NCBI GenBank assembly: GCA_964564335.1
Contig: CAZMBV010000003.1
Coordinates: 1,953 to 38,861 of the forward strand
From: an uncultured archaeon
GTDB taxonomy: Archaea > Asgardarchaeota > Thorarchaeia > Thorarchaeales > Thorarchaeaceae
Direction of reading: 5' to 3'
DNA: 36,909 bases
Position 1 is the first letter of the stretch, and every line of letters starts with the position of its first letter. This document shows, in pieces, positions 1-24,640 of the stretch. Under the pieces are notes generated by a model. The model did no database searches. It saw nothing but the letters and a program-made list of their open reading frames with translations, and was not told the origin of the DNA. The translations under genes were made by a program, and so were the position numbers.

Positions 1-756
1 AGTTTGATAACTGTGAATGTTGTTTCAGCAGGACCAGGTCCTTCAATCGGAACACCATCAACTCAGCCTGAGGTTCCAATAGCAAATGAGGAACTCACCG
101 TCATTGTTCCAGTTACATCTTCAGAAACGATAACATACGTAAGACTCCAATACAGTATCAACGATGGAACAGAATGGCTGAATGTTACAATGTCTGAAGA
201 AGGTGGTAATTATATTGGTATCATTCCCGGATTTGCGAATAATCAGGTTGTACAATGGCGAATTGTGGCAGCTGATGCATCAGGTGTGGAAACCGTAGGT
301 CCAATATTATCTTACACCGTTGGACAGATACCTGTGGAGCCATTTGATATTCCTCAATTCCATTATGGATGGTTATTAGGAGCGCCAGCTTTAGTCTTAG
401 CATATCTTGGTTCAGCCCTCGAGTATTATGATGAAGAACGGTTTACCAAAGTTCATGGTATTATGCTGACTGTTGCATACATTTTAACAAGCATTAATGT
501 CATTTCACTAGTAATGGAACCATCAGGTGTTTGGGCAGCGATGAATCCTGCGTATTTGTTCAATTTGAGCAACATGTTATTATTCATGCACTCCTGGCAC
601 ATCTGGCTTGGAATAATTAGTATGATTCTAGGTACTCTCGCAGTTATTACACATCTCGGTGGTTGGAAAACATGCAATCTAGGATTACCTGCAGTAGTAC
701 TATGGACCATACTTGGGATAATGGGCATCTATCTGGGAGAAACTTTCATTCTATGA
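1..756 (+). CDS. C-terminal part (5'-truncated by window) of a secreted beta-rich/Ig-like protein ending in a ~4-TM His-containing membrane domain (cytochrome b561/DUF420-like)
   Basis: Frame is open to base 1. Ig-like strands (VRLQYSIND..., YIGIIPG, VQWRIVAAD) are followed by hydrophobic helices with KVHGIML, MHSWHIWLG and ITHLGG. TGA stop at 754-756. Confidence 0.7.
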   Translation, partial: SLITVNVVSAGPGPSIGTPSTQPEVPIANEELTVIVPVTSSETITYVRLQYSINDGTEWLNVTMSEEGGNYIGIIPGFANNQVVQWRIVAADASGVETVGPILSYTVGQIPVEPFDIPQFHYGWLLGAPALVLAYLGSALEYYDEERFTKVHGIMLTVAYILTSINVISLVMEPSGVWAAMNPAYLFNLSNMLLFMHSWHIWLGIISMILGTLAVITHLGGWKTCNLGLPAVVLWTILGIMGIYLGETFIL

Positions 757-766
757 GGTGATTGAG

Positions 767-2251
767 ATGTCAAATGAAGAAATAGAAAATGAAGTCGAAT
801 CAATTCCTGAAACTCCTCCTGAAACAGCAACTCCTGAGAAAGAATCAGTAATTGACTTGCTAAAAGGAGTAGTAGGAGAAGGACGAGTTGGAGACTCAGA
901 GCTTGAACGCGTCGTCTATAGCGGAGACCCTTCATCATTACCTCAATATCACTATAGATGGAAGATAAAGTATCTTGCTGACTATGTTGTGAGAGTTGAA
1001 AATGAAAAGGAGATTCAGGACATTCTGAAAATCGCTCGTGAATACAATATTCCTGTTATTCCACGAGGCGGCGCTTCAAGTTGTATGAGTTCTTCTAGTC
1101 CGAGTCGTGGAGGAATATCTCTCGATATGAAACCTATGAACAAGATACTAGAGATCAACAAGGAAGGAATGTTCGTTCGAGTTGAACCAGGAGTAACTTT
1201 TGAAAATCTTGCAAACGCATTAGCAAAACAGAATCTTACCCTGGGTATTTATCCATCAAGTGCAAAATCTGCAGTAATCGGAGGGTGGATTGGATGTGGA
1301 GGTAGAGGTGGAATAGGTACTCCGTTCTATGGAAGCCTCAAAGATCATATCATGGCATTATCTGTTATCGGAGGAGATGGTTCATTAGAAGTCCTGGAAG
1401 GCGAGGATATCAATCTCTTTCTCAATTCATATGGTATACTGGGTGTTGTTTTTGAGGTTAAATTAAAGATTCACGAGATTGTTCATGAGTACAAATCATT
1501 TAGCTACGGATTTAGAACAATCGAAGGACTCTGTAATGCATTGACAGAAATCACAACACTTGAAGCAAGACCAGTTTATCTAAAAATTGCAGATGACGAG
1601 TTGCAGAAATACAGCAATCCACTTGAGATTGGTAAATATGTTCTATCAGTGACCTATATCGATGTACCCTCAGTCCCGCTTGAAGACTTGAAGTCAATTA
1701 CTGGTAAACACGATGGAGTGTACATCAACGAAGAATTTTCAGAGAAGGAATGGGATCTGAGGTATGATGCGGAATTCAATCCAAAAGAACATACGGAAAC
1801 TCTAATGTTCCAAGAATTCTGGATGCCTATTGAAAAGGTGCATGAAATGCTTTCAGCATTTGAGAAATATCGCAGATCACACAAGATTCCTGCTTTATGG
1901 TTTGGGATGCTTGGCACTCAAAATGAAATGAGACTCGAACTCATGGTAATGATAGATGCAGCACAATATCTCAAGTTCATTTCAAGCAAAGGAATCTTGC
2001 ACAAGATGATGAAGAAGGCGATCAAAATAGGAGGCGCACCATATACGATCGGACTTCAGAATTCAATCTACATGTCTCGCGCATATCCAAACCGGATGGC
2101 AGAAATGCAAAAAGCAAAGGAGAAATGGGACCCTAGTGGAATCATGAATCCGGATAGAGTTACGAGTTGTTTGACATCATATAGGAGAATAGATGTCCTA
2201 TTCTTGCTTGCCACCGCTTTTCGGCGGTTGTCAAAATATGTGGGAGAGTGA
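767..2251 (+). CDS. FAD-binding oxidoreductase, GlcD/VAO (FAD_binding_4 + FAD-oxidase C) family, paralog 1
   Basis: IPRGGASS, VEPGV, YPSSAKSAVIGGWI, SYGILGVV and C-terminal DPSGIMNP motifs. SD GAGGTGA at 755-761 favours ATG 767 over GTG 758. Confidence 0.88.
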   Translation: MSNEEIENEVESIPETPPETATPEKESVIDLLKGVVGEGRVGDSELERVVYSGDPSSLPQYHYRWKIKYLADYVVRVENEKEIQDILKIAREYNIPVIPRGGASSCMSSSSPSRGGISLDMKPMNKILEINKEGMFVRVEPGVTFENLANALAKQNLTLGIYPSSAKSAVIGGWIGCGGRGGIGTPFYGSLKDHIMALSVIGGDGSLEVLEGEDINLFLNSYGILGVVFEVKLKIHEIVHEYKSFSYGFRTIEGLCNALTEITTLEARPVYLKIADDELQKYSNPLEIGKYVLSVTYIDVPSVPLEDLKSITGKHDGVYINEEFSEKEWDLRYDAEFNPKEHTETLMFQEFWMPIEKVHEMLSAFEKYRRSHKIPALWFGMLGTQNEMRLELMVMIDAAQYLKFISSKGILHKMMKKAIKIGGAPYTIGLQNSIYMSRAYPNRMAEMQKAKEKWDPSGIMNPDRVTSCLTSYRRIDVLFLLATAFRRLSKYVGE

Positions 2252-2260
2252 GATTTTACA

Positions 2261-3385
2261 ATGAATATCGATAATCTTTCAGAAATTCTAAAAAATTGTG
2301 GTTCATGTAATTATTGCAGGGACACTTGTCCAATGTTTATAGAGTTAAAATCAGAGCTTGATAGCCCTGGAGGAAAACTCAGAGCATTAAGGGCATATGC
2401 CACTAAGATGCGGGACCCTCCAGCAGCTCTCCTAGAGAAACTCTATTGTGCAGACTGCCGAAGATGTGAAGCAATCTGTCCAGCTGGAGTTCCAGTTACA
2501 GACATCTGGCACGATGCAAAGGCGCAACTCCTAAAAACTGGAGGAGAGATGTCAGAGTCACTAACAAAGGTGCTTGAGTGGTTAGAAAAAGAAGGAACAC
2601 CATTCGTCGGATTTGAAGCCGATGAGCGAGGTGTATGGGCCGAAGATCTCGAGCTTCCAGAAGAATCAAACACAGCGATTTTCTCTGGTTGCATGGGGAG
2701 TTTCTGGTACCCCGACCAACCTGAGACAATAGTTGATATGTTACATAAATTGAATGTGAATGCAGGATATGTTCCCAGCGAAGTTTGTTGTGGTCTTTTC
2801 AATTATTGGGCTGGTGACGATAAGGGCTTTGAAAAGATTGTCCGTAAGAATTACGAGATGTTTAAGAAAGCAGGAGTTGACCATATTGTAACTGGTTGTG
2901 GAGGATGTTATGGCACACTAGCAGAACATTATCCTCGTATCATTCCAGATTTTGATATCAAGATTCTACATTCTGTGGAAGTCTTAGCCAATATGGTTCA
3001 AAATGGAGTTCTCACTTTTGAAGGTCTGGAAGGGACCTATACATATCATGATGGTTGCCACCTCGGAAGAGGTTTAGGAATCTACGAACCACCGAGAGAA
3101 ATCATTCGAGCAGTTCCTGATCTTGAGCTCGTTGAGTTGAAGAACAACAGAGAGAATTCGAATTGTTGTGGTGGCTTTCTTGCAGTCCTCGATCCAGATG
3201 TTGCTGCATCAGTAGGAAGGCGAAGAGTCGCTGAAGCAGAAGAATTGGGAGTTGATGGGATCATCACGTCCTGCATTTCGTGCTATAAGAATCTCAGTTA
3301 TAATGCAAGGGAAACAAAGCTGAAAGTGATACAGCTTGATGAATTAATACTAGATAAAGCTCGATCCTCTCTAGTTGAAGGATAG
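2261..3385 (+). CDS. (Fe-S)-binding oxidoreductase, GlcF/HdrD-like (2x[4Fe-4S] + 2 CCG domains), paralog 1
   Basis: CGSCNYCRDTCP and CADCRRCEAICP clusters. CCG domains GC..EVCCG..CGGC and YHDGCH..NCCGG..CISC. Confidence 0.9.
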   Translation: MNIDNLSEILKNCGSCNYCRDTCPMFIELKSELDSPGGKLRALRAYATKMRDPPAALLEKLYCADCRRCEAICPAGVPVTDIWHDAKAQLLKTGGEMSESLTKVLEWLEKEGTPFVGFEADERGVWAEDLELPEESNTAIFSGCMGSFWYPDQPETIVDMLHKLNVNAGYVPSEVCCGLFNYWAGDDKGFEKIVRKNYEMFKKAGVDHIVTGCGGCYGTLAEHYPRIIPDFDIKILHSVEVLANMVQNGVLTFEGLEGTYTYHDGCHLGRGLGIYEPPREIIRAVPDLELVELKNNRENSNCCGGFLAVLDPDVAASVGRRRVAEAEELGVDGIITSCISCYKNLSYNARETKLKVIQLDELILDKARSSLVEG

Positions 3386-3419
3386 GAAGAGTTACAAATA
3401 AAGAATGGAGATGTAATGT

Positions 3420-4748
3420 ATGAGTAAAGAAAAAGGCACACGCGTTGTGATTGTTGGTGGTGGAATTTCAGGATTTAGTTGTGCACTGGAATTAAAGGGT
3501 CTAAAGGCTCGTTGTACGATTCTAGAAAAGGAGAAGACAGTCGGAGGCCGTGCAAGATCCTACACCGAATCAGGATATGTCTTTGACCAAGGTCTACACT
3601 TTTTCGTTGGTGGCTTTAAATCACTAATTCCTATTCTCGAGAGAAGCGGTGTGAGAATGACCACAGTAGGTGAAGGTGCAGTCTGGTTGAAGGATGGGAA
3701 TAGACACATCATTCGTAGGTCTGCTGTGGAGCTTGCTAAGTTTGGACTGCTTCCTACAACTGATAGAGCTCGACTGGGATTACTAATTCAGGAGAACATA
3801 AAGAGATCAAAAGAGGAGTTCAAAGAACTTGACAAAATGACCTTTTCAGAATATGCTCAAGATAAGAAAATCCCAGAATCGATTCAAAACGACTTCTATG
3901 CTCCGCTTATTAAGACAGTCACGTTCATGGATCCTAGCGAGGTTTCCGCTGGACAATATCTATACTCTGAGAACCTGAGATTTGCATATGAAGATGGTTT
4001 CAGTGCGATGTATCCAGAAAGAGGCGGGTTAGGTAGTGTAGCATATACACTGATGCTGCAAGCACGTAACTTTGGAGTAGAACCACAAGTCAACTGCGCT
4101 GTCAAACAAGTCATAATCGAGGACGGAAAAGTTGTCGGAGTTGATTATGAACAAGATGGCGAGAGCAAACATCTTGACACTGATGCTGTTGTCTTAACTG
4201 TACCAATTGATCTTCTACCAAACTTTGTGAAAATGAGTGATCTACCTAAAGAGTTCACTCAGAAGGCAGCTAAGTTTCAATACGCTCCATCCACAGTGGC
4301 ATACTTTGGATTGAAGTCGCGAATATTAGATTTCAATGTAGGTGCTTTTGTACCTGAGAGAAAAATCAACATAGTTGCAGAAGCTAAGAGGGTTTCAGGT
4401 GTTTTAGCTCCAATAGGTGAATCACTCTTAACCGTGACAGGAATTGATAAAGAACTTCTCAAAATGAGTGATGAAGATGCTACTGAAGAAATCCTTAATG
4501 AGCTTGAGATACTGATTCCTGGTGTGAAGGAGAAAGTCACATGGAAGAAGAGTTGGAAGATCTGGAAATCAGTTCTTTCACAACCACCGGGAATAATGGA
4601 TGATCGTTTGACAACAAACCGGACTGGCGTTCAAGGGCTGTATGTTGCAGGTTCACATGCGAATTGTGGAATGTATTACGCTTCGATGGAAGCTGCATCT
4701 AGGTCAGGTATGGCTTGTGCTGGAGAGATGATTGCAGACCTTAAGTGA
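3420..4748 (+). CDS. FAD-dependent oxidoreductase, phytoene/zeta-carotene desaturase/HpnE-like (amine oxidase fold)
   Basis: Rossmann IVGGGISG, LEKEKTVGGRARS, DQGLHFFVG and C-terminal GLYVAGSH..SMEAASRSG. The last two resemble PDS/ZDS GLHxFFG and SMEGA. Confidence 0.75.
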   Translation: MSKEKGTRVVIVGGGISGFSCALELKGLKARCTILEKEKTVGGRARSYTESGYVFDQGLHFFVGGFKSLIPILERSGVRMTTVGEGAVWLKDGNRHIIRRSAVELAKFGLLPTTDRARLGLLIQENIKRSKEEFKELDKMTFSEYAQDKKIPESIQNDFYAPLIKTVTFMDPSEVSAGQYLYSENLRFAYEDGFSAMYPERGGLGSVAYTLMLQARNFGVEPQVNCAVKQVIIEDGKVVGVDYEQDGESKHLDTDAVVLTVPIDLLPNFVKMSDLPKEFTQKAAKFQYAPSTVAYFGLKSRILDFNVGAFVPERKINIVAEAKRVSGVLAPIGESLLTVTGIDKELLKMSDEDATEEILNELEILIPGVKEKVTWKKSWKIWKSVLSQPPGIMDDRLTTNRTGVQGLYVAGSHANCGMYYASMEAASRSGMACAGEMIADLK

Positions 4749-4854
4749 CTCAATCCGCATATTGAATATGCTAAGAGTGTAACAGCTCTTGGCATAACTA
4801 TATACTGGCACACAGTAATTTGGGAATAAGCAGTTTCATATGGTGTGCTTAGAG

Positions 4855-6048
4855 ATGACCAAACTGGACTTCCTTGAGAAATACAAACAAGAAGATGAAC
4901 CATATGTCTGCGCATCGTGTGGGAACTGTACTCTTGTCTGTCCAGTTTTTCATGAATTAAATTGGGAGTCTTATGGGCCACGAGGCAAACTACATCTGGT
5001 CAAATCAGTCATTGAAGGAACAAGCGAATTCGGACAAGATCTCGCTGACAAGATTTTTCTATGCAACTTATGCGAGCACTGTACGTTTGTTTGCACAACT
5101 GGTATTAGTCTTGATCGATTTTGGGAAGTAGTTCGGGCAGAAGTCCGAGAACGAGATTTGTTGCCAGCTCCAGCCAAATTTGTTCTGAAATCACTCAAAG
5201 AACGTGGGGATCCAATGTGGATGGGTTCGGCAGACAGACTTCTATGGATGGAAGGTGTGGAAGAACTTGTCAAAGGACGTATATTGAAAAAAGCCAAGGT
5301 TGCGTATTTTCTAGGTTGCAATGTTTCCTTGAAGTCCCAGCTGCATGATGTAGCTAAATCAATGGTCAAGATATTGGACTACGCAGGCATTGACTATACA
5401 TTACTCGGGGACAAAGAGGTATGTTGTGGTGCTCCTTTGGGGTGGGCGGGAAATCTTAAAGATATCAATGAAATGGCCGAGAAGAATCTGGAAATCATGG
5501 AGCAACTAGGAGTTGAAACAATAGTATTCAGCTGCCCTTCTTGTATACAGACTTGGTCAGAATACAGCGAACGTGTGAAAAAAGACCATAACATCGAACT
5601 ACTGACTGCATCACAATTTATCAATCGTTTAATCCGTGAGAAACGGCTTCACTTTGATGAGCAGCCTATGATAACAACAACATTTCATGATCCTTGCATC
5701 TCAGCCAGAGTATTGAAAGCAACTGAAGAACCTAGGGAAATCATCGATGAGATTCCTGGTGTTTATAATGTTGAGATGAATCCTTCGCGGCAAAATACAA
5801 GGTGTTGTGGATCTCATGGTTTACTCGATGTCGTAAATCCTGTTCTCTCAGCTAAAATTGCTGAGAGACGTCTGAGAGATGTGACTGTAACTCCTGCGAC
5901 TCGGGTCGTTACTGAGTGTCCCCGATGTATTCTAGCATTCGACCTTGCAAAATTCACTACGAACTATGATATACAGGTGCAGGACATCACACAACTTGTA
6001 GCTAGTTCCTTATCACCAAAAAAGGAGGAAGGTGACAGGAACCGATGA
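4855..6048 (+). CDS. (Fe-S)-binding oxidoreductase, GlcF/HdrD-like, paralog 2
   Basis: CASCGNCTLVCP, CNLCEHCTFVC, VCCG..CPSC, FHDPC..RCCG..CPRC. Start is 4855 or 4840. Overlaps the next gene (ATGA). Confidence 0.9.
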   Translation: MTKLDFLEKYKQEDEPYVCASCGNCTLVCPVFHELNWESYGPRGKLHLVKSVIEGTSEFGQDLADKIFLCNLCEHCTFVCTTGISLDRFWEVVRAEVRERDLLPAPAKFVLKSLKERGDPMWMGSADRLLWMEGVEELVKGRILKKAKVAYFLGCNVSLKSQLHDVAKSMVKILDYAGIDYTLLGDKEVCCGAPLGWAGNLKDINEMAEKNLEIMEQLGVETIVFSCPSCIQTWSEYSERVKKDHNIELLTASQFINRLIREKRLHFDEQPMITTTFHDPCISARVLKATEEPREIIDEIPGVYNVEMNPSRQNTRCCGSHGLLDVVNPVLSAKIAERRLRDVTVTPATRVVTECPRCILAFDLAKFTTNYDIQVQDITQLVASSLSPKKEEGDRNR

Positions 6049-7766
6049 GCTCAGAGGAACTACGAATTGGTGATATCGTTGGAGCTGATAATGTTTCAAC
6101 TACGCCAGAAACATGCATGATTTATTCAAAAGATGTGACGAGTTTACCGGACTTGGTGCATCAGATTGTTAGCCCCAGATTTGATGTTGTTACTCAACCT
6201 GTGGATGTTCCTTCACTTCAGAATCTGATTTTGTATGCAATAGAGAATAGAATTCCTGTAGTTCCTAGAGGAAATGGTACCTCTGGATGGGGTGGAGCAA
6301 TTCCGACAAGAGGAGGGTTCTGCATTGCGCTATCAGGTATGTCTGAAATTTTATACTTCAACGAGTTCGAGTCTGCTGTGACTGTTGAAACAGGTATTAC
6401 ATGGAGAAACCTTCTAACATTCTTAGAGCGTCTTGGTTTTACACTACCGGTCTATCCTTCAAGTGCGACCGCAGCGACTGTTGGGGGATTCGTAGCAAGT
6501 GGAGGTCTCGGAATAGGATCGACTCGCAATGGTGATATTCTGAAGCAAGTTCTTGGAATTGAAGCGGTTTTACCAAATGGAAAACTCGTAAGACTTGGGC
6601 AAGTATTACTTGACTCAAAGAGTGATATGCTCAGCGAAAGAGCGAAAGAAGGTAATGAATGGTTAAGCAAGCAGTTATCAGCAGCGGGACTTGGCACTCC
6701 CGAGCAAGAAACTAAGCTTTTCACTGGTACATATGGAACTCTTGGTATAATAACAAAGGTCACTCTCAAGATAATACCGAAACTCCAACTAGTTCCATTT
6801 ACGTGCTCATTTGACAGTATGGAAGATCTTGTGAGAACTGCAGATAGAATCCTATCTACTGTCAAACCATATTATATGAGATTTCTTACGAATGAGTACA
6901 CATCCAAATTAGGAAACTTGAAAGCGCGCGAAAATGAGAATGGAAAGTACATCCTTACCGGAGCTCTCCTTGACACCATTTACCAAAATGAAGATAATGT
7001 TGAGATAATTAAAACAACTACAGAGCAAGAAAATGGATTTGTTTTGGATGATAAGCGGGCTTTGTATTATTGGGATGAAAGACTCTATCCCCTGAGAATT
7101 AAACGACATGGGCCGAGTATTGTCCCTGCAGAGATGCTTGCGCCTCTAGATATGCTTCCAGAGATATTAGAGAAGACCAAGTACGAACTTCGAAATTCCA
7201 ACGTTGCTATTGAAGGAATGCTGAACAATGATAGTACTGCTTCCTTCATGGTCTGGATCTTAGATGATGAAAGGAAGAAATTCTCATTCACAGTTGGGTG
7301 GTATCGGTCATTTCAGATTGCTTCACTTGCGGAGCGTTTTGGCGGTCGTCCATACGCAGTGGGATTATGGAATGGAAGACATGCAAAGAAATACTATGGC
7401 AACGATTCATACAACAATCTCAAAGTCATGAAGAAAAAACTCGATCCAAATAATATCATGAATCCAGTCAAAGTCTTTGGTGGTAGAGTGACAATTGGTA
7501 GGGTATCGATGCTTTCTGGATTTCTTATTGGATTTGTAGGCGTTCTGGTAGTTGGGTGGGTGGGTCCAAGATTTCTTGGTCTTATCTCGTTAATTCAATT
7601 GCTTGAAACGAGTTTACTCCCTTCATTCTATTTTCCGCCCTTAGCACTTATTGCATTCGCAGCAGGATTAGGAGGGCTTTTAATTACTAGACTAATGACT
7701 TTGAATCAAGCGTTAGCCATGGGTATCCCTGTTCTAAAAATCCTCGGCAAGCTACTACGAAGATAG
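6045..7766 (+). CDS. FAD-binding oxidoreductase, GlcD/VAO family with C-terminal membrane anchor, paralog 2
   Basis: VPRGNGTSGWGG, YPSSATAATVGG, GTYGTLGIIT and DPNNIMNP, then ~95 extra residues with two hydrophobic segments. Confidence 0.88.
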   Translation: MSSEELRIGDIVGADNVSTTPETCMIYSKDVTSLPDLVHQIVSPRFDVVTQPVDVPSLQNLILYAIENRIPVVPRGNGTSGWGGAIPTRGGFCIALSGMSEILYFNEFESAVTVETGITWRNLLTFLERLGFTLPVYPSSATAATVGGFVASGGLGIGSTRNGDILKQVLGIEAVLPNGKLVRLGQVLLDSKSDMLSERAKEGNEWLSKQLSAAGLGTPEQETKLFTGTYGTLGIITKVTLKIIPKLQLVPFTCSFDSMEDLVRTADRILSTVKPYYMRFLTNEYTSKLGNLKARENENGKYILTGALLDTIYQNEDNVEIIKTTTEQENGFVLDDKRALYYWDERLYPLRIKRHGPSIVPAEMLAPLDMLPEILEKTKYELRNSNVAIEGMLNNDSTASFMVWILDDERKKFSFTVGWYRSFQIASLAERFGGRPYAVGLWNGRHAKKYYGNDSYNNLKVMKKKLDPNNIMNPVKVFGGRVTIGRVSMLSGFLIGFVGVLVVGWVGPRFLGLISLIQLLETSLLPSFYFPPLALIAFAAGLGGLLITRLMTLNQALAMGIPVLKILGKLLRR

Positions 7767-7989
7767 CAGCAACTCGTTTAATTTTTTCTTACAAAAGATT
7801 GAAGTAAGTCATATGCCTGACAATACTAATCGTTGATGTACATTTGGTTATACAGGTTTCAAAAAGAATCAATGAATGCCAGTTAACCAATATGCTCAAA
7901 TATGAGACATTAGTTTGAAAATGAAACTTGGCGAATGTATTCTCAATGGTCGAAGATACAGAACGAAACCAAAAATGAGTGTTGCTGTA

Positions 7990-8580
7990 ATGAAACGTAA
8001 TCAAACTATTAAAACCATCATCGCTATTGGCTTTTTATCATTACTTGTTGTGACTGCTGCAGGTTCAGTTGGAGCTTTTTCAAGTAAGACAAATGAATGT
8101 GGAACATCTGGTTGTCATGATACAGCTGGAGTCCTAACTCTATCTTCAAACTCGACTAGCTTCAGTGCAACAACAGGAAACCCATTTGTCTTGGTGATTC
8201 AGGCAGGAAATGGGGCAGAATGGATTAAAGTCGAGCCGGGATGGGAAGACAATGCTCAGTTTTCAATTTCTCAAAATGCGATTGAGGATGGATCAGTTAA
8301 CGATACTGATGCAGCCACAGGAGCCATTTCTGTAGAGATTACATTCATTCCATTATCAGCTGGTACTCAGACAATTCGCATCTGGACAGCAGCTCAAAGC
8401 GATTTAGCAACTTCACTCGATATCACAGTCACTGTGACCGGTGATTCAATTACGACGCCCACACCTCCACCCACTGTAGATTTGGTTGGGACATGGAGAA
8501 TGTTAATGATTATACTCCCAGTATCAGTAGGCGCAATTCTTCTGATTCTAGGAGTGGTTATAATAAAGAGGAAAGCATGA
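7990..8580 (+). CDS. Exported, C-terminally anchored protein with CX4CH motif (putative atypical monoheme c-type cytochrome)
   Basis: Signal peptide MKRNQTIKTIIAIGFLSLLVVTAAGSVGA. CGTSGCH at 8098-8118, then a beta-rich domain, a TTPTPPPT linker, a TM helix and a KRKA tail. Start is 7990 or 7975; the track's 7915 looks over-extended. Confidence 0.7.
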   Translation: MKRNQTIKTIIAIGFLSLLVVTAAGSVGAFSSKTNECGTSGCHDTAGVLTLSSNSTSFSATTGNPFVLVIQAGNGAEWIKVEPGWEDNAQFSISQNAIEDGSVNDTDAATGAISVEITFIPLSAGTQTIRIWTAAQSDLATSLDITVTVTGDSITTPTPPPTVDLVGTWRMLMIILPVSVGAILLILGVVIIKRKA

Positions 8581-8591
8581 AGGTGATATGA

Positions 8592-9095: not shown

Positions 9096-9110
9096 TAAGG
9101 AGACCCAGCA

Positions 9111-14384: not shown

Positions 14385-14386
14385 AG

Positions 14387-15132: not shown

Positions 15133-15468
15133 ATGAGTATGCTCATCGAAATGACATTCGCATTTATTCTAGTATTGGGAGCAACCTTCTTGCTATTTCT
15201 AATAGGTAATAGGTTGGCTCCATTGACAACCGATCGTGATGAAGGGCAGCACCAATATGCTTGTGGAGAAAGTCCTATCGGTTTCAAACAGAAGACGAGC
15301 ATATCGCTCTATAGATACCTCATCTATTTCCTCGTGATGGATTCCTCACTATTGATAATTGCCTTTGCAGTACTGGGAGTTGTATACGCAAATCTTCTTT
15401 CACTATTGATGTATCTATCAATTATTCTTGTATCATCACTGTTGTTTTTAGAAGGAGGCAACCAATAG
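15133..15468 (+). CDS. nuoA: NuoA-like membrane subunit
   Basis: 3 TM, loop YACGESP (cf. YECG), YLIYFLVMD. Start is probably 15133 or 15139 rather than 15058. Confidence 0.8.
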   Translation: MSMLIEMTFAFILVLGATFLLFLIGNRLAPLTTDRDEGQHQYACGESPIGFKQKTSISLYRYLIYFLVMDSSLLIIAFAVLGVVYANLLSLLMYLSIILVSSLLFLEGGNQ

Positions 15469-15469
15469 A

Positions 15470-17489: not shown

Positions 17490-17500
17490 GAGGAAGTTGA

Positions 17501-18505
17501 TTGGTTAGTATTGATCTAGTATTCTTCATTCGTTCACTCCTATTTCCAGGATTTCTGTTTATTCTACTTATGTCTCTTTTCTATGACTGGGTGACACGAA
17601 AAGTAGAGGCACGAATGCAGAACCGAGTTGGACCTAACACTGCAGGACCAGCTGGAATTTTTCAACCTCTGGCTGATATTGTAAAGCTTCTCGCAAAGGA
17701 GAGACTAGTGCCTCATGATGTCAGGTCGCTAGCCTTCACCCTTGCTCCTGTACTATCACTTGCCATCTTCATTTTCACGCTATTCTTTCTGCCAATCGAC
17801 GGTTCCACGACTCTGTCGGGTATAAGCTTTGAGGGCGACCTCATAGTCATCTTGTCGATAATCACTCTTGCAAACCTGTTCCTTTTTCTCGCTGGCTGGG
17901 CGTCAACGAATGCCTATAGCAAAATAGGTGCCTCACGAGTACTGGTCATGTTTCTTGGCTACGACATTCCTCTGGTCATAATCGCACTTACACCTGCATT
18001 TCTTGCAAATAGCCTGAGTGTTTCAACTATTGCAACTAGTCAATCTATTCCATTCCTCTTCTTGATTCCTTGGTCCTTTGTTTTGTTCTTGGTCACTTTG
18101 CAAGCAGAACTGGAAAAAGATCCTTTTGATATACCTGATGCAGAAACCGAAATAGTAGGTGGCTACGAAACAGAATATGGAGGAACGGGGCTTGCTTTTC
18201 TTAAGCTTGCAAAGGATGTCCAGCTTTTCCTCGGTTCAGCTCTGGTTGTCGAGCTCTTTCTTGGAGGTCCCTATGGCCCTGTGTATTTTGATATGCCAGC
18301 TCTGTGGTTCACCATCTGGTTCATCCTAAAGGTTCTCTTTGTTGTCATACTTGGAGAATTCATAGCAAATATCTTCGCACGCCTGCGCATTGACCAAGTC
18401 CTATCAATATCTTGGAAACAGGTCATGCCATTGTCTGTTGTTTCGCTCATGGCGACTCTAATTGTCGCATTCTGGGTGCTACCCATCATAGGAGTTGGAG
18501 GCTAG
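17501..18505 (+). CDS. nuoH: NuoH-like membrane anchor subunit
   Basis: RKVEARMQNRVGP, QPLADIVKLLAKE, PFDIPDAETEIVGGYETEY. SD AGGAGG, TTG start. Confidence 0.92.
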   Translation: MVSIDLVFFIRSLLFPGFLFILLMSLFYDWVTRKVEARMQNRVGPNTAGPAGIFQPLADIVKLLAKERLVPHDVRSLAFTLAPVLSLAIFIFTLFFLPIDGSTTLSGISFEGDLIVILSIITLANLFLFLAGWASTNAYSKIGASRVLVMFLGYDIPLVIIALTPAFLANSLSVSTIATSQSIPFLFLIPWSFVLFLVTLQAELEKDPFDIPDAETEIVGGYETEYGGTGLAFLKLAKDVQLFLGSALVVELFLGGPYGPVYFDMPALWFTIWFILKVLFVVILGEFIANIFARLRIDQVLSISWKQVMPLSVVSLMATLIVAFWVLPIIGVGG

Positions 18506-18510
18506 TAGAG

Positions 18511-18888
18511 ATGAGAAAGTCAAGACTGTCGTCTCTTTGGAAGGATGTGCTACTTCACTTGTTTCGAATCCCAGCAACTCAAAAGTATCCATATGTTCCA
18601 CCCGATGTCCCTGATGGATTCAGAGGACGACACCTCTTCTACATCGATCGTTGCATTAGCTGCAAGCTGTGTGAACGAGTCTGCCCAGCAAAAGCAATTG
18701 AGATGATCGACATCGAAGGCGAGTTGCGACCGTTGTTTATGCTTGACCGTTGTGTTTTCTGCTATCAGTGCGCCGAGAGCTGTCCCAAAGATGCCATTGA
18801 TTTCTCAAAGAATTTTGAGCTTGCTAGCGGTAACAAATCTCAGCTCGTTGTCAGACCAGATGAGGAATTTAAGGAGAGTGAAGAATAG
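18511..18888 (+). CDS. nuoI: NuoI-like 2x[4Fe-4S] subunit
   Basis: PATQKYP..FRGRH, CISCKLCERVCP, CVFCYQCAESCP. ATG 18511 follows the nuoH stop. Confidence 0.9.
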   Translation: MRKSRLSSLWKDVLLHLFRIPATQKYPYVPPDVPDGFRGRHLFYIDRCISCKLCERVCPAKAIEMIDIEGELRPLFMLDRCVFCYQCAESCPKDAIDFSKNFELASGNKSQLVVRPDEEFKESEE

Positions 18889-18889
18889 A

Positions 18890-19354
18890 TTGATTCTTGA
18901 GATACTTGCTATTGGGCTTGTTGTCACCGCACTTCTTGCGGTAAATGTTGATGATCCTATTTACTCAGTGATTTCGTTAGCTTGTGTATTCGTTATCACA
19001 TCTTTGCTATACTTAGTGAATGGAGCATACTATGCTGCCATTTTTCAGTTTGTTATTGGAATAGGAACTCTTGCAATCTTGTTTGTGACCGCTGAGACCC
19101 TTGATGAAACACGTTTTGAGAAGAAGCCATCTAAGTTTCCAATTGGTACTATAGTCGCAGCTCTCATTCTTGTAGTTCCAGTGATTTTTCTCACAATTCC
19201 AGTGATACGGATTATTCCTGAACCTGCAGGTAATCTGCCCTATGTGTTGTGGGATTTGAGGTCTATTGATGTGATTCTGCAGGGCATTATCATGTTGGTT
19301 ATTGCTATTGGTATGATTATTCTTCTGAAAAACGAAAGGGAGGCAGATCGCTGA
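18890..19354 (+). CDS. nuoJ: NuoJ-like membrane subunit
   Basis: 5 hydrophobic segments, YSVISL..AAIFQF. Lies between I and K. Likely TTG start at 18890; the track start at 18743 overlaps nuoI. Confidence 0.8.
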   Translation: MILEILAIGLVVTALLAVNVDDPIYSVISLACVFVITSLLYLVNGAYYAAIFQFVIGIGTLAILFVTAETLDETRFEKKPSKFPIGTIVAALILVVPVIFLTIPVIRIIPEPAGNLPYVLWDLRSIDVILQGIIMLVIAIGMIILLKNEREADR

Positions 19355-19692
19355 TGGACTATCTGATTCTATCAATGATACTCATGGCAATAGGTGTCTA
19401 TGGTCTCTTGACCAAATACAGGTTTCTAAAGATGGTAGTGTCAATTGAGATACTCGCCATTGCTGCAACAATGAACTTTGTTCTTCTTGTATCTGCAACA
19501 GGCATACGCCTGGGTGAGGCACTTCTCGTATTGGCGTTCTCGACAGACATCTGCGTGTCGTCAGTAGTAGTGGCTTTGCTTGTGATAGTATCGAGGAAGT
19601 ATGGGACTACTGATATTCGGGAACTAGCTAGAATGATCCGAGATCGAACAGAGACTCCTGAATCTGAACAAACAACATCGGAGGAAGAGTGA
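19354..19692 (+). CDS. nuoK: NuoK-like membrane subunit
   Basis: IGVYGLL..KMVVSIEIL..NFV, 3 TM, RKYGTTDI. Confidence 0.87.
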   Translation: MDYLILSMILMAIGVYGLLTKYRFLKMVVSIEILAIAATMNFVLLVSATGIRLGEALLVLAFSTDICVSSVVVALLVIVSRKYGTTDIRELARMIRDRTETPESEQTTSEEE

Positions 19693-21645
19693 TTGCTACC
19701 ACTTGCTCCTTGGTTAGTATGGATTATACCTCTTGCATCTAGTTTGTTAATTCCTGTCATGAATAGGATTAGTGACAAAGCACGGGATTACTTTGCAGTA
19801 GTTTCAATTTTTGTCACATTCCTATTTGCCGCCTCGATTATTCCTGATGTGTACTTTGGGCCAGCAGTAGGCACAGACCTAACTGCACCATGGCTTCCGA
19901 TAATTGGAGTAACCGCAGGTATTGTTGTTGATCCCCTCAGCATCCTTTTTGCTAATCTGATTTCCTTCCTAGGTCTCATCATTATTGTATATTCTCTAGG
20001 ATACATGAAAGATGAGGAGGGACTATCACGATACTACTTCTTCCTCACCTTCTTCCTTGGCTCGATGATTGGACTAGTAATGTCGGACAACTTTCTACAG
20101 ATGTTCATTTTCTGGGAGATGGTTGGACTCTGTTCATCCGCACTTGTGTCATTTTGGAGTAAGCGTGTTGAGGTTGTTCGGGCAGGTACTAAGGTCTTTT
20201 TGATGACCCGAATTGGAGATGTATCTTTCTTAGCTGCAATTGCTGTTCTATATGCGAATCTGGGCTCGTTTTCATTTTCATATACAATGGCTCATATTGG
20301 TGATTTGCCTCTCTCTACTATTACCACGGTTGCTTTTCTCATTCTTGGCGGAGCCCTAGTGAAATCTGCGCAATTCCCTCTCCATACTTGGCTTTACACT
20401 GCCATGGAGGCACCTACATCGGTTAGTGCACTTCTCCATGGCGCTACCATGGTCAAGGCGGGTGTGTATCTTCTGGCAAGAGTGTTCATCCTATTTGGTC
20501 CCCTCATCCCTCTAATTCCGATGTGGTTGGAGTCAATTGCATGGATAGGCGCTTTAACTGCGTTTATTGGTGCCACATTGGCATTTGGAACGCCGGATAT
20601 CAAGGGAGTTCCAGCTTACTCGACTGTGAGTCAAATCGGATTTATGATGGCGGCATTTGGAACGGCTTCCTCATCTGCTGCACTTGGATGGTTTGCGGGT
20701 CTGTTCCATCTTATGAGCCATGCATTCTTTCAGAGTCTTGGTTTTCTTGCAATTGGAGCTATCATTCATATGCTGGGAACCCGTGATATGAGAAAGATGG
20801 GAGGTATCAGAAAATTGATGCCTGTTACCTTTGCACTTTGTATCGTGGTACTTTTCGCTCGAACAGGTGTGCCACCATTCGCTAGCTTCTTCAGTAAGGG
20901 ACTTATTGTCAAGAGTCTCTTGATAACAGGAGATCTACTTCAACTCATAATTGTCTATGGCGCAATCGCCCTCACATTTGCTTACACTCTCAGGTTCACA
21001 ATACTGACATTTCTCAGGGGGCAGTCAGACTATGTCAAAAATGCGAACTTGCATGAAGCACCAAAAATTATGCTTATCGCATGTATCATCCTTGCCATCT
21101 TGTGTACAGTATGGGGATTTGTAGCAAATCTATTTGCATCATTCATGCACGTTGGTCAAGTTGTTCAATTCAGTGAAATCTTCAGCATTCCTACAGTGAT
21201 ATTCGTGTTTGTCCTATTCTTAGGAGGATTCCCTGTCTACCTCTACTATTACAAGATGGATGGCATTGAGAGTACATTCAAGACGAAGTTCATTCTCCCC
21301 CTCAGCACAGTAGCTGGAAATGGTTTCTATATCGATAAGTTCTATGACCGCTTTGTCGGTGGCGGCGTTGCTAAGATATCTAGAGGAGTCCGTACTGCTG
21401 AGTACTCATTCTTTGAGCGTATACCAACATATGTTTCTCATGGTGCCAATCGTTTCACAAGTAGAGTACATTCTGGTTTTGATATTGCTATCAGCAAGAT
21501 TCTGTACTTCACCCGTGATAGATGGCTCTCAAAGGATGATAGAAGTCCCCATGATGTTGATGGCTCTTTACCATCATACCTTGTGGTATTCCTTGTTGGA
21601 GTTCTGATTCTTGTTGTAATGATTCTGATGACTATATGGGTGTGA
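19693..21645 (+). CDS. nuoL: NuoL-like antiporter subunit
   Basis: FWEMVGLCS, RIGD, KSAQFPLHTWL..AMEAPTSVSALLHGATMVKAG and FFSK. Long C-terminal extension (GFYIDKFYD). Confidence 0.92.
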   Translation: MLPLAPWLVWIIPLASSLLIPVMNRISDKARDYFAVVSIFVTFLFAASIIPDVYFGPAVGTDLTAPWLPIIGVTAGIVVDPLSILFANLISFLGLIIIVYSLGYMKDEEGLSRYYFFLTFFLGSMIGLVMSDNFLQMFIFWEMVGLCSSALVSFWSKRVEVVRAGTKVFLMTRIGDVSFLAAIAVLYANLGSFSFSYTMAHIGDLPLSTITTVAFLILGGALVKSAQFPLHTWLYTAMEAPTSVSALLHGATMVKAGVYLLARVFILFGPLIPLIPMWLESIAWIGALTAFIGATLAFGTPDIKGVPAYSTVSQIGFMMAAFGTASSSAALGWFAGLFHLMSHAFFQSLGFLAIGAIIHMLGTRDMRKMGGIRKLMPVTFALCIVVLFARTGVPPFASFFSKGLIVKSLLITGDLLQLIIVYGAIALTFAYTLRFTILTFLRGQSDYVKNANLHEAPKIMLIACIILAILCTVWGFVANLFASFMHVGQVVQFSEIFSIPTVIFVFVLFLGGFPVYLYYYKMDGIESTFKTKFILPLSTVAGNGFYIDKFYDRFVGGGVAKISRGVRTAEYSFFERIPTYVSHGANRFTSRVHSGFDIAISKILYFTRDRWLSKDDRSPHDVDGSLPSYLVVFLVGVLILVVMILMTIWV

Positions 21646-21646
21646 T

Positions 21647-23134
21647 ATGATGACTATGGCTCTTCTTCTCATACTGGCTCTGTTCGCAGCTGCGATACCA
21701 ATTTCATATCTTGCTGAGAGAGCACGGACTGGTCTAGGCGCTCTGACGCTCTTCATTGTGGCGACAATAGGCATGTTTCTGCTTTCTACAACAATACCAG
21801 AAATACTCAACGCTGCGAACAATAACCGATATACTGAAACATATTACTGGGTTCCGGAGATAGATGCATCATTTTCACTCTTTGTTGATGGGATTAGCTT
21901 TTCGATTTCATTTATTGCCTTAATCCTGATTGCTCTAACTTCACTCTATTCCATTCCCTATATGAAAGACAGAGATGACATTAATCCATATTATTCCCTC
22001 TTAGCACTCCTATCTCTTGGACTCCTAGGCATTTTCATCACTAGCAATCTCTTGTTGTTTTACTTCTTCTGGGAACTGATTCTCATCCCCTCGTACTTCA
22101 TTATAGGTACGTGGGGGGGAGGGGATTCCTATGGTGTTGCATTCAAATTCTTTATCATCACACATGCAGGTGCGGTTCTTGTACTCCTTGGGATTGGCTC
22201 GGTCTTTGTCATCACTGGGAGCTTGGATATGTTTCAAGTAACAGCTGCACTTGCTACCATGCAGACCGGACCTATTGGTTGGATACTTATTGCGTTCACA
22301 ATTGGGTTCGCAGTGAAACTTGCAGTTATCCCAGCGCATATATGGCTCCCTGATGCGTATTCAGAGAGCCCTGCAACCATGTCTGCACTCCTTGGTGGAG
22401 TGATGACCACTGCTGGTGCCTATGGTATCTTGCGGATCTCACTTGGTGTTGTGCTTCCAGCTTTGTTATCCAATCCATTCGGAGTACAATTCCTGCATAC
22501 TCTAGCCCTCTTTGGAATCTTATCTGCTCTCTTTGGATCTCTTGTGGCTGTTCAAGAGAATGATGTGAACCGAATGCTGGCATACTCAAGTATTTCTCAC
22601 ATGGGGTATGTGGTTTTTGCTCTCTCACTCTTCCCGAATCCCCTAGCCATTATTGCAACTGTCCTCCATCTGCTCAATCACGGTGCAACTAAAGGACTCT
22701 TTTTCCTCACAACGGGTGACATTGTGAAGAAAGCTGGGACGAGAGATATGAATGAACTCAGTGGAGTGGCATCTTGCATGCCAGTCACTGGCACATGCTC
22801 AGCAATCTCTGCATTAAGCATTGGTGGAGTACCGCCGTTCGCATGTTTCATTAGCGAGTTCCTAATTTTCATGAGCGCTTTCCAAGTAGCTATTATAGAT
22901 AGTTTCTATCTAATTCCCACATTTCTCTTGCTAGCCGCGAATGTACTCTCCCTAGCTTATGCATTAAGATATGTTGGCAATGTACTGCTCGGGCCCCCTG
23001 ATACCAATCAGATGAACGAACGGTCAGCATTAGTACTTGGAGTAGTTGTGGCGTTAGCCGTTATAGTGGTTATTCTGGGTATATGGCCTTCAATATTTAC
23101 ACAACTCATCGCACTTGTCAATTTTCAAACATGA
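21647..23134 (+). CDS. nuoM: NuoM-like antiporter subunit
   Basis: FYFFWELILIPSY..WGG, AVKLAVIPAHIWLPDAY, LAYSSISHMG, FISEF. Confidence 0.9.
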   Translation: MMTMALLLILALFAAAIPISYLAERARTGLGALTLFIVATIGMFLLSTTIPEILNAANNNRYTETYYWVPEIDASFSLFVDGISFSISFIALILIALTSLYSIPYMKDRDDINPYYSLLALLSLGLLGIFITSNLLLFYFFWELILIPSYFIIGTWGGGDSYGVAFKFFIITHAGAVLVLLGIGSVFVITGSLDMFQVTAALATMQTGPIGWILIAFTIGFAVKLAVIPAHIWLPDAYSESPATMSALLGGVMTTAGAYGILRISLGVVLPALLSNPFGVQFLHTLALFGILSALFGSLVAVQENDVNRMLAYSSISHMGYVVFALSLFPNPLAIIATVLHLLNHGATKGLFFLTTGDIVKKAGTRDMNELSGVASCMPVTGTCSAISALSIGGVPPFACFISEFLIFMSAFQVAIIDSFYLIPTFLLLAANVLSLAYALRYVGNVLLGPPDTNQMNERSALVLGVVVALAVIVVILGIWPSIFTQLIALVNFQT

Positions 23135-23143
23135 GGAGATATT

Positions 23144-24640
23144 ATGATAGACATTCTAGATATTCTTGCAATACCCACCATCCTTATCCTAATGGGAGTT
23201 CTAACAATACCTGTGATCAAGATACTTCACACAAAACCTCGGTATTTCAGGGAGCTACTCATTGGATGGTTTCTGATCGGCTTCGCTCTCTGCATTATTG
23301 CAATCGCTAATCTCTCCTTCAAATACTTCAATCTCGAACCGATAGTCCCATTCTTCAATATCAATATTGCAGGAATTGAATTCTTGGTATTTTCAAGCAG
23401 TTTTCTGGTCGACGCCCTCTCTGTCTATATTGTTGTGATTTTCATAATAATTGGTGCGATCGCAGTCATATATGGTGTTCTAAGTGAGAAGGATAAGGGA
23501 CAAATCACGGAACGATACTATGCAGTGATGCTCATAGTGCTTGCAGGACTGATGGGAGCCGCACTTGCAGGAGATCTACTCACGCTCTTCATTTTTTGGG
23601 AGGTCTCAGCAGCTGGTTCTAGTTTTCTCATGCTTTATCGGAAGACCCCCAGATCGATTCATGCCACGCTCAAGTATTTGGTCATGATTGTCATAGGCTC
23701 CAGTTTCATCATGTACGGTCTCTCAATCGTCTTTAGTATTGCAGGCACTCTAAACTTCTGGGAGGTCAGGAATGTCCTGATAATTTTCAGTGATAAAACG
23801 CTCTTACTTGTAGCATTCGGATTCATAGCCGGAGGTTATGCAATCGAGGCTGCAATAGTCCCATTCCATCTATGGCTTCCGGACGCATACACGGAGGCGC
23901 CAGCATCATCGTCTGCCTTTCTTTCAGGATTGGTCGATCAGGGTAGCTACTACGTGCTGTTGAGAGTACTCATCTATATTCTGACTCCAACCGTGGTTGT
24001 CAACTGGACTACCACTATTGCAGTGTTCGCAGCTCTCAGTATGATTGTGGGGAATCTTCGAGCACTAACGGAAGTCAACATCAAACGTCTTGTAGCATAC
24101 ATCTGCGTTGCAGATGTGGGTTACAATCTTGTAGCCATAAGCAGTATGACACATGTTGGTGTGATGGCTAATCTCTTCTTCTTCTTCGTCGGGGGAATGG
24201 CTACTGCCCTTGCCTTTATGACTGTAGGATTGTTGAATAGTATGGGTATTGAAACATTAGATGACTTCAATGGGATAGGCAGATCCGTTCCATGGACTAG
24301 TCTAGGTCTCTCATTTAGTCTATTATCATTCACTGGGATTCCTCCATTTGCTGGTTTCTTTGCAAAATACCTTGTATTTACTTCCGCAATTGAAGGAGAT
24401 CTATCTTGGCTGGCAGTTATTGGCGTCACTGCAAGTGTCATCCAAGCAGCATATATATTCAGGCTCGTGAATCGAATGTATGGTCGTCCTTCATCACAAC
24501 AATTCAAAGTCAAAGAGTCAAGAGCTGCACTCATCCCCATTTTTATCCTCGGGTTAGCTCTGATAGTTCTTGGCTTCTTCCCAACGTTGGCTCTCAATCT
24601 GATACAACCGGTAGTCCAGGAGCTTCCAATGATACCATAA
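23144..24640 (+). CDS. nuoN: NuoN-like antiporter subunit
   Basis: FIFWEV, ATLKYL, VPFHLWLPDAYTEAP, GIPPFAGFFAKY. Last gene of the operon. Confidence 0.87.
   Translation: MIDILDILAIPTILILMGVLTIPVIKILHTKPRYFRELLIGWFLIGFALCIIAIANLSFKYFNLEPIVPFFNINIAGIEFLVFSSSFLVDALSVYIVVIFIIIGAIAVIYGVLSEKDKGQITERYYAVMLIVLAGLMGAALAGDLLTLFIFWEVSAAGSSFLMLYRKTPRSIHATLKYLVMIVIGSSFIMYGLSIVFSIAGTLNFWEVRNVLIIFSDKTLLLVAFGFIAGGYAIEAAIVPFHLWLPDAYTEAPASSSAFLSGLVDQGSYYVLLRVLIYILTPTVVVNWTTTIAVFAALSMIVGNLRALTEVNIKRLVAYICVADVGYNLVAISSMTHVGVMANLFFFFVGGMATALAFMTVGLLNSMGIETLDDFNGIGRSVPWTSLGLSFSLLSFTGIPPFAGFFAKYLVFTSAIEGDLSWLAVIGVTASVIQAAYIFRLVNRMYGRPSSQQFKVKESRAALIPIFILGLALIVLGFFPTLALNLIQPVVQELPMIP

Follow-up and report, generated by a model that had tools for sequence, protein, structure and literature searches.

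In the Hmc and Tmc complexes, a cytoplasmic CCG iron-sulfur subunit is combined with a membrane heme protein and with a c-type cytochrome outside the membrane; HdrDE and DsrMK are built likewise, without the cytochrome c. The CCG domains of Hdr are disulfide-reducing sites. GlcDEF, Dld-II and YdiJ pair a GlcD-like flavin adenine dinucleotide (FAD) subunit with a subunit of two [4Fe-4S] and two CCG units, and fused homologues exist. The archaeal variant of System I for cytochrome c maturation, as outlined in the parts of Kletzin et al. (2015, PMC4429474) that treat it, comprises CcmA, B, C, E and F, with a Cys of CcmE replacing the heme-binding His. The Hfo of Bathyarchaeia is presented by Loh, Herve and Brune (2021, PMC7886697), in their sections on the complex, as an 11-subunit [NiFe] hydrogenase of subgroup 4g with Fpo gene architecture, and the same sections state that subgroup 4g lacks any biochemically characterised member. 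Hfo-type hydrogenases are presumed in the literature to couple ferredoxin and H2 to ion translocation. For Freyarchaeia and Atabeyarchaeia, a complex-I-like group 4 [NiFe] hydrogenase is described in the relevant parts of Valentin-Alvarado et al. (2024, PMC11291895).

Genes resembling parts of these systems lie side by side in a stretch of 36,909 nucleotides (nt) from an uncultured archaeon of the Thorarchaeaceae (assembly GCA_964564335.1, contig CAZMBV010000003.1; G000:C3:1953-38861), hereafter the window. A sequence-only reading of this DNA had joined about 25 consecutive genes at 1-24640 into one electron-transport chain. Our results point instead to two neighbours, a reading to which we give a probability of roughly 55%: an island (1-14773) whose dehydrogenases would pass electrons to hemes, and an Hfo-type hydrogenase that was inserted separately and would stand outside the chain of the island. 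We scanned the 25 plus-strand open reading frames (ORFs) over 1-24640 with Pfam and NCBIfam, and 22 of them carry Pfam families at E<=0.001. All real genes of this part of the window lie on the plus strand. The run of some 25 same-strand genes of redox, heme and ion-pumping kinds was borne out, and the matches confirm three FAD/CCG modules, a desaturase-type flavoenzyme, ccm genes and complex-I-like genes. The island genes, together with a cytochrome gene just upstream of the window, are as follows.

1-756, plus strand: 3' part of g01, a candidate c-b fusion cytochrome with Ig-like ectodomains and a four-transmembrane (4-TM) domain; N-terminus lost to a run of N
758-2251, plus strand: GlcD-like FAD flavoprotein 1, soluble form (FAD_binding_4 1e-34, FAD-oxidase_C 1.6e-9; glcD equivalog 133 bits against a cut-off of 567.9)
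2261-3385, plus strand: CCG/HdrD-like iron-sulfur protein 1 (CCG 1.2e-34 in two stretches, Fer4_8, Fer4_17)
3420-4748, plus strand: amine-oxidase-fold flavoenzyme, phytoene-desaturase/HpnE-like (Amino_oxidase 4.5e-38; HpnE 116.9 bits against a cut-off of 283)
4840-6048, plus strand: CCG/HdrD-like iron-sulfur protein 2 (CCG 2e-30, Fer4_8)
6045-7766, plus strand: GlcD-like FAD flavoprotein 2, with a hydrophobic C-terminal tail of ~90 amino acids (aa) seen in the translation (FAD_binding_4 4.6e-30)
7915-8580, plus strand: g07, a candidate monoheme c-type cytochrome with a signal/anchor segment, CX4CH, an Ig-like domain and a C-terminal TM segment; the ATG at 7990 may be the true start
8592-9095, plus strand: g08, a DUF2231-like 4-TM membrane protein with four invariant His, candidate di-heme b anchor
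9111-10289, plus strand: CCG/HdrD/TmcB-like iron-sulfur protein 3 (CCG 9.2e-34; TmcB 1.6e-34, 119 bits against a cut-off of 735; HmcF 3.3e-20)
10301-12022, plus strand: GlcD-like FAD flavoprotein 3, with a hydrophobic C-terminal tail (FAD_binding_4 1.1e-40)
12075-12785, plus strand: ccmA (ABC_tran 92 bits)
12795-13502, plus strand: ccmB (CcmB 67.2 bits against a cut-off of 24.9)
13565-14239, plus strand: ccmC (Cytochrom_C_asm 94.9 bits against a cut-off of 29.9)
14244-14384, plus strand: 46-aa single-TM ORF in the ccmD position, conserved in location
14387-14773, plus strand: ccmE, cysteine type, C-P-S-K-Y (CcmE 48.9 bits against a cut-off of 24.6)
G000:C3:393-1832 (L015), minus strand, just upstream of the window: multiheme cytochrome c of 480 aa with six CXXCH, one CX4CH and a C-terminal anchor

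Judged from gene order, the genes at 1-14773 form a conserved accessory island, the synteny of which extends over five genera of a single Thorarchaeota family. Within the genus, a GlcD-like or CCG gene follows directly beyond ccmA in all 15 loci that extend past ccmA, and 11 of these 15 retain the order of window genes 1-12022. Genus-level synteny takes in MutS too and is therefore little proof by itself. In four other genera of the family, where CcmC is 58-68% identical, FAD/CCG/cytochrome genes adjoin ccmABCE in 6 of 8 loci, and the remaining two contigs end first. In these genera MutS is not adjacent, CcmF and a 697-aa protein stand beside ccmE, and genes for GGR and polyprenyl synthase sometimes lie between. 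With MutS separated and CcmF moved beside ccmE, the linkage of the island has thus survived rearrangement.

The block that follows ccmE in the window, and the minus-strand gene beyond it, are listed below.

15058-24640, plus strand: Hfo-type 11-subunit [NiFe] hydrogenase cassette (Pfam and NCBIfam matches; L1/L2 motifs), made up of the next ten genes
15058/15133-15468, plus strand: nuoA-like
15470-15910, plus strand: nuoB-like, reading C-N-G-C
15897-17489, plus strand: fused C-D large subunit, with L1 and L2 [NiFe] motifs and all four Cys kept
17501-18505, plus strand: nuoH-like
18412-18888, plus strand: nuoI-like
18743-19354, plus strand: nuoJ-like
19354-19692, plus strand: nuoK-like
19693-21645, plus strand: nuoL-like
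21647-23134, plus strand: nuoM-like
23144-24640, plus strand: nuoN-like
24688-25344, minus strand: FMN-reductase-family flavoprotein with a Cys-rich stretch (FMN_red 2.6e-26)

The ligand motifs of [NiFe] hydrogenases, taken as RxCGxCxxxH for L1 and DPCxxCxxH/R for L2, are both present in the fused C-D subunit (R-I-C-G-I-C-N-S-C-H and D-P-C-F-S-C-T-D-R), and the earlier assignment of the block to hydrogenases thus stands. Both motifs occur in all of the best 120 large-subunit homologues, 116 of which end at L2. The closest solved chains of the large subunit are those of MBH (6cfw_L, 5e-86) and HycE (7z0s_E), ahead of complex I NuoD. Complex I and Fpo have lost the [NiFe] cysteines from subunit D, and their subunit B has a tandem-Cys N2 motif. 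The window cassette departs from them on both points, since its D keeps four Cys and its B reads C-N-G-C. Scans of the window gave no match to NuoE, NuoF, NuoG or FpoF. The genome also encodes HypD.

A scan of one genome per species yielded 80 related Hfo loci, whose record titles are 73 Bathyarchaeota-type, 2 Thermoproteota, 1 Promethearchaeota, 1 Thorarchaeota, 2 Acidobacteriota-type and 1 "uncultured archaeon". All ten cassette genes were found in 55 of the 80 loci, in the same gene order, and the large subunit shares 52-63% identity with Bathyarchaeia records. In a FastTree phylogeny of large subunits (57 rows, among them 42 of the 80 loci; local SH-like supports, midpoint root), the window protein falls with Bathyarchaeia Hfo in a clade of 48 rows with an SH-like support of 100. 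This clade divides into 9 rows (the window, one Thorarchaeota-titled record and seven metagenome proteins) and a sister group of 39, mostly Bathyarchaeia; the other sampled Asgard group 4 large subunits (L004-L012) and the NuoD paralogue of the same genome lie outside it. On motifs, gene order and phylogeny, 15058-24640 is an Hfo-type, Fpo-like 11-subunit hydrogenase of group 4g, a family already described. It shares with Hfo, as far as the complex is set out in the sections of PMC7886697 cited above, the same eleven subunits, the nuo/fpo order, the lack of NuoEFG/FpoFO and the retention of L1/L2. It differs in its Thorarchaeote host and in the fusion of C and D, and the Thorarchaeota-type sequences form the 9-row sister clade rather than lying inside the sampled Bathyarchaeia. 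With the Freyarchaeia/Atabeyarchaeia complex, as portrayed in those parts of PMC11291895, it shares an Asgard host, a place in the membrane, NuoL/M/N-like antiporter subunits and a full-length L-like subunit, whereas the genes of that complex, at most eight of them Nuo-like, are found together with those for Hdr, a group 3c hydrogenase and ATP synthase. The longest frames of nuoH and nuoI overlap by 94 nt (18412-18505) and those of nuoI and nuoJ by 146 nt (18743-18888), as they do in the related genome G018, and the starts are uncertain.

To place the cassette, we fetched the ccm loci of all 17 other genomes of the genus that have ccm, 18 loci in total; CcmC is found in 18 of 28 genus genomes. 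In 18 of the 18 loci ccmE is followed by FMN-reductase and/or MutS genes, which in the window come after nuoN, and no nuo genes lie between them in any. The stop codons of ccmE and the FMN-reductase gene are ~6 nt apart in G017, against 9.9 kilobases (kb) between the two genes in the window. An orthologue of the large subunit (68-69% identity) was detected in 2 of the 24 other genus genomes searched, the remainder holding paralogues of at most 43%. G018 carries an orthologous cassette (large subunit 69%) in the opposite orientation, beside orthologues of window 30998-34446, which encode an ABC transporter and an aldo-keto reductase. Island genes (FAD/CCG, cytochrome, ccm) were absent at E<=1e-10 from the 10 kb around all 80 Hfo loci, 66 of which have at least 5 kb upstream. 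By this gene order the hydrogenase is a self-contained cassette, inserted between ccmE and the FMN-reductase gene in this lineage alone. Insertion scars were sought at the two junctions: the one match common to both is of 10 nt, at chance level, and G000 and G018 cannot be aligned upstream of nuoA. GC content at third codon positions was also considered as an argument for transfer and set aside, the difference between cassette genes (0.32-0.45) and island genes (0.29-0.39) being too small. In 27 of the 80 Hfo loci (L034-L113) the region upstream of nuoA includes a gene for an ABC ATPase, in many cases accompanied by an ABC-2 permease; an ABC pair also stands beside the cassette in G018 and 6 kb downstream of it in the window.

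A single chain of all 25 genes, leading from an unnamed substrate through extracytoplasmic hemes to H2 turnover by the hydrogenase, is therefore hard to reconcile with the relatives. The genes do share a strand and are closely spaced in the window, contigs of other runs span the junctions, and the cassette of G018 is in the same general neighbourhood. Yet the hydrogenase is missing at this site from 17 of 17 other genus genomes with ccm and wholly missing from most, island genes accompany none of the 80 Hfo loci, and the island occurs without Hfo in the four other genera. A spacer of 359 nt precedes nuoA and contains an AT-rich, TATA-like stretch at ~15050-15077, which we note as an observation only. 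We regard the single chain as highly improbable, and synteny does not support a link of the island to H2 turnover. The sequence-only reading had itself held that blocks unlinked in relatives would speak for chance juxtaposition. The synteny check gave that result for the hydrogenase (0 of 18 ccm loci, 0 of 80 Hfo loci) and the opposite for the FAD/CCG, heme and Ccm genes, so that this part of the proposed chain is retained. Its claim that the combination is undescribed divides in the same way: the hydrogenase is a known Hfo, and no description of the FAD/CCG-heme-Ccm island was found among the papers that the literature searches listed, although its genes may appear in the supplementary tables of papers on Asgard genomes. 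What may be new is the combination of genes in the island, the parts of which are of known kinds; the Hfo hydrogenase family was already known.

The adjacency of ccm and hydrogenase genes is probably real in this strain, since contigs of other public runs bridge both junctions (X1 record 2, 14497-14874; X1 record 8, 20080-25711; X6 record 26, 21728-24950). The bridging runs possibly belong to the sampling campaign of the assembly itself, so that this support is not fully independent. Over the ccmE-nuoA spacer (14497-15131) the X1 contigs have a depth of 8, against ~18 on both flanks, and strains may vary at the junction. From the RNA run X24 came three contigs of 151 nt, located in ccmC (13582-13732) and at 17430-17778, with a depth of 2-2.5; they do not demonstrate transcription or an operon. 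The first gene of the window is truncated at its N-terminus by a run of N (G000:C3 ~1854-1952). The 147 nt between ccmC and ccmE, taken earlier for an empty gap, are filled by the conserved 46-aa ORF. The 95-aa ORF at 14778-15065, without a family match in Pfam or NCBIfam, is probably not a gene. With the former real and the latter doubtful, the count of 25 real genes stands.

All three flavoproteins of the island contain FAD_binding_4 and FAD-oxidase_C domains, and two have membrane-type tails; flavoproteins 2 and 3 are 33% identical over their full length. Their closest solved relatives are lactate, D-lactate and glycolate enzymes, those of flavoprotein 3 being LctD (7qh2_C) and D-lactate dehydrogenase (8jdb_A). 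The architecture of two [4Fe-4S] and two CCG units is found in all three CCG proteins, and the alignment of CCG protein 3 covers the TmcB model almost entirely. Equivalog scores are low: 120-143 bits for glcD (TIGR00387, cut-off 567.9), 75-92 for GlcF (cut-off 333) and 54-64 for DsrK on the CCG proteins (cut-off 400). On these scores, membership in the GlcD, GlcF and D-lactate dehydrogenase groups is at the superfamily or domain level only. Homologues of 871-1024 aa in which GlcD and CCG parts are fused carry both domain sets (P0178, P0217, P0225). The pairing of subunits thus resembles that of GlcDEF, Dld-II and YdiJ, from which the island differs by membrane tails on two of three flavoproteins and by three to four tandem paralogous sets with cytochromes. 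Many genus genomes have a fourth module between flavoprotein 3 and ccmA (L115, L116, L118, L119, L123, L126 and others), missing from the window; in it a 4-TM four-His protein of 136 aa accompanies one GlcD-like and one CCG protein.

An atypical heme protein had been proposed from the sequence, and the ORF at 7915-8580 (g07) indeed contains C-G-T-S-G-C-H behind an N-terminal hydrophobic segment. It belongs to no Pfam or NCBIfam family. A C(X2-4)CH motif is found at the same N-terminal site in 15 of 16 homologous ORFs, as CX4CH in 9 and as CX2CH in 6. Two further paralogues on contig C26 of the same genome have CX3CH and CX4CH, respectively. The interchange of CX2CH and CX4CH at one site is the strongest sign that the g07 motif would bind heme, and suggests a heme lyase tolerant of variable CX2-4CH spacing. 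Orthologues in which the spacing switches include L027, L031 and L114-L135. The neighbouring g08 has four His (H4, H9, H11 and H48) invariant in 15 sequences. It scores 18.5 bits against DUF2231, under the gathering cut-off of 26.4, and in the protein Atlas it reaches DUF2231-type clusters at 0.85-0.88, below the 0.9 mark. Its AlphaFold2 (AF2) model (pLDDT 82.6) shows four long helices. Foldseek found nothing at E<=0.001 for this model in the PDB; the weak rows, which are leads only, are of heme-handling membrane domains (STEAP2 at E 0.12, then CcsBA, CcmC, CcmF and NOX). Co-folding of CCG protein 3 with g08 from 15-row alignments of each scored 0.00, which is no answer and speaks neither for nor against binding.

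For g01, Pfam gives a weak CBM_56 match alone (23.3 bits against a cut-off of 27). His 121, 152, 197 and 200, in the numbering of the truncated ORF, are invariant in 15 sequences, and 4 of 4 full-length orthologues have an N-terminal C(X2-4)CH motif. These orthologues join a heme-c motif to a 4-TM four-His domain, and g01 would therefore be a fusion of the types encoded separately at 7915-9095. The multiheme ORF upstream of the window is the only one in the genome with at least three CXXCH. It scores above the cut-offs of the Cytochrom_C552, C7 and C554 models and is conserved in G002, G005 and G017 (52-57% identity). Remoter multiheme homologues adjoin ccm genes in other Asgard families (L136, L139, L140).

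The 46-aa ORF between ccmC and ccmE, which has no Pfam match, recurs in all 14 genus loci searched, in G002 and G005 as well, and in all 8 family loci. A CcmF-like ORF of 692 aa (90.4 bits against a cut-off of 29.9) lies outside the window on C26, the content of which directly follows the island in G002 and G005. With CcmA, CcmB, CcmC, CcmE and CcmF, the genome has the archaeal System I component set. The island agrees with the variant of Kletzin et al. in the Cys of CcmE as well, and differs in the conserved CcmD-like ORF and in a CcmF that is apart from ccmABCE, beside the multiheme cytochrome. As in that variant, CcmH was found neither in the window nor on C26. The FMN-reductase gene adjoins ccmE in 16 of 18 genus loci and 6 of 8 family loci, tail-to-tail in nearly all relatives, other genera included, and may belong to the island. 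The 697-aa membrane-anchored protein (L025, 2-2095; homologues L128-L140), which is of no known family, accompanies CcmF across several Asgard families.

Taken as a device, the island would comprise three parallel transmembrane redox modules, with four in many relatives. Each module would have a cytoplasmic GlcD-like FAD dehydrogenase acting on a substrate of the 2-hydroxy-acid type, an HdrD/TmcB-like CCG iron-sulfur protein in presumed contact with it, a 4-TM four-His protein holding two b hemes, and an extracytoplasmic c-type heme domain, which is part of the same chain in g01 and a protein of its own in g07. Maturation of these hemes and of the multiheme cytochrome would fall to the archaeal System I variant, with CcmABC, the CcmD-like protein and Cys-type CcmE encoded in the island and CcmF nearby. 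The modules would share this one maturation system and the one multiheme cytochrome, and the island would continue upstream with the latter and on C26 with CcmF. Substrates in the cytoplasm would give up electrons to the extracytoplasmic hemes, which would hand them to an external acceptor or partner, in a direction that we infer. The feeding of extracytoplasmic hemes by FAD/CCG dehydrogenases is the part of this scheme that synteny supports. More tentatively, the system may serve modular extracellular electron transfer, in which c-b fusions would be wired to GlcD/HdrD-type dehydrogenases and to a surface multiheme cytochrome, with a maturation system that accepts CX2CH, CX3CH and CX4CH at one site.

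The layout of a CCG protein, membrane heme b and an outside c-type cytochrome is that of Hmc/Tmc and, without the cytochrome, of HdrDE/DsrMK, and CCG protein 3 spans nearly the whole TmcB model. The island nevertheless scores far under the equivalog cut-offs, and its membrane subunit is a DUF2231-like 4-TM protein and not of the NarI/HdrE type. Its c-heme domain is monoheme with Ig-like domains, sometimes membrane-fused, and a GlcD-like flavoprotein is added. Electrons might flow inward, as proposed for Hmc/Tmc of sulfate reducers, from outside cytochromes through the CCG proteins to a disulfide or 2-oxo acid in the cytoplasm. This would agree with the observed resemblance of the CCG proteins to TmcB, HmcF and DsrK, and of their CCG domains to HdrB; the paired GlcD-like flavoproteins, however, are typically substrate-oxidising, and no candidate disulfide carrier was identified, so that we consider inward flow distinctly unlikely.

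The FAD/CCG pairs could also be ordinary membrane-associated 2-hydroxy-acid dehydrogenases, GlcDF/Dld-II-like, that feed a lipid-soluble carrier, with the cytochrome and ccm genes merely co-located. This would suit the lactate, D-lactate and glycolate enzymes among the closest solved relatives, the GGR and polyprenyl-synthase genes in or beside the island in relatives, the phytoene-desaturase-like gene inside it, and a complex-I-like cluster of the quinone-reductase kind nearby. Against this, no module, not even the extra fourth, lacks a 4-TM four-His protein of its own, joined to a heme-c domain or next to one, and we think this explanation unlikely. The flavoenzyme at 3420-4748 is the most conserved gene of the block (89-92% identity within the genus, 73-78% within the family), and its closest solved chain is plant phytoene desaturase (5mog_A, 2.7e-15). 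A role as protoporphyrinogen oxidase is less likely, that match being limited to the FAD-binding N-terminus while phytoene desaturase aligns over residues 136-442. Together with the nearby GGR and polyprenyl synthase genes, this enzyme hints at an isoprenoid substrate or carrier, which has no place as yet in the module model.

The complex-I-like cluster just mentioned lies on C26 (L025; 10512-11738, 11869-13872 and 15155-19874). Its ORF of 667 aa at 11869-13872 fuses a GlcD-like flavoprotein to a NuoB with the tandem-Cys motif G-C-C-M; a CCG gene stands beside the fusion, and NuoA, J, K, C, D, H and I follow, with a D subunit devoid of the [NiFe] cysteines. A run of N at ~14600-14700 breaks a small ORF. 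Among the matches listed, 46 homologous clusters of the GlcD-NuoB fusion have all three domains or nearly, and the rows with a named source are Thorarchaeota save one Hodarchaeota. The cluster is present in genus genomes without the island (G001, G012 and G014, for example) and is thus core and not island-dependent. It shows, even so, that this group joins GlcD-type flavoproteins to energy-converting complexes of the membrane. Our literature search found no paper on NuoB in Thorarchaeota, nothing relevant on a NuoB-GlcD fusion in archaea among the matches listed, and no paper on Thorarchaeota multiheme cytochromes.

Several observations weigh against the division into an electron-transferring island and a separate hydrogenase. 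The hydrogenase is on the same strand and 359 nt past ccmE, and read-through transcription may occur in this strain; the cassette is also in the same ~20-kb neighbourhood in G000 and G018, which could hint at more than chance. The synteny within the family is in part inherited. Counts of CcmC and flavoprotein 3 agree by genus (17/27 vs 18/27 in g1, 5/7 vs 7/7 in g22, 13/17 vs 12/17 in g25 and 0/5 vs 0/5 in g15), and flavoprotein 3 is found in 40 of 85 family genomes and in 1 genome among 400 elsewhere, but such agreement is weak evidence because physically linked genes are also lost together. No GlcD-like gene is near ccm in five loci of other Asgard families, and the ccm-GlcD link is therefore family-specific. 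The modules are far from the GlcD, GlcF, TmcB, HmcF and DsrK equivalog cut-offs, so that the substrate and partners proposed here are putative; the 4-TM proteins fall below the DUF2231 cut-off and lack a significant structural match; and covalent heme at the CX3CH and CX4CH sites is a prediction.

Hfo had so far been described from Bathyarchaeia; a few Thorarchaeota also have it, as a cassette that is movable. In this case the adjacency of same-strand genes in a single genome suggested a functional link that proved false. The usual view of Thorarchaeota is that of fermenters or acetogens that have no respiratory chain. If our reading is true, the island would give them a membrane-bound or extracellular route of electron transfer, for which it supplies concrete proteins for testing. 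Were the transfer extracellular, the cells could pass electrons from their substrates to minerals or to partner cells with no need of H2. This would bear on syntrophy models of the origin of eukaryotes, Thorarchaeota being among the Asgard relatives of eukaryotes.

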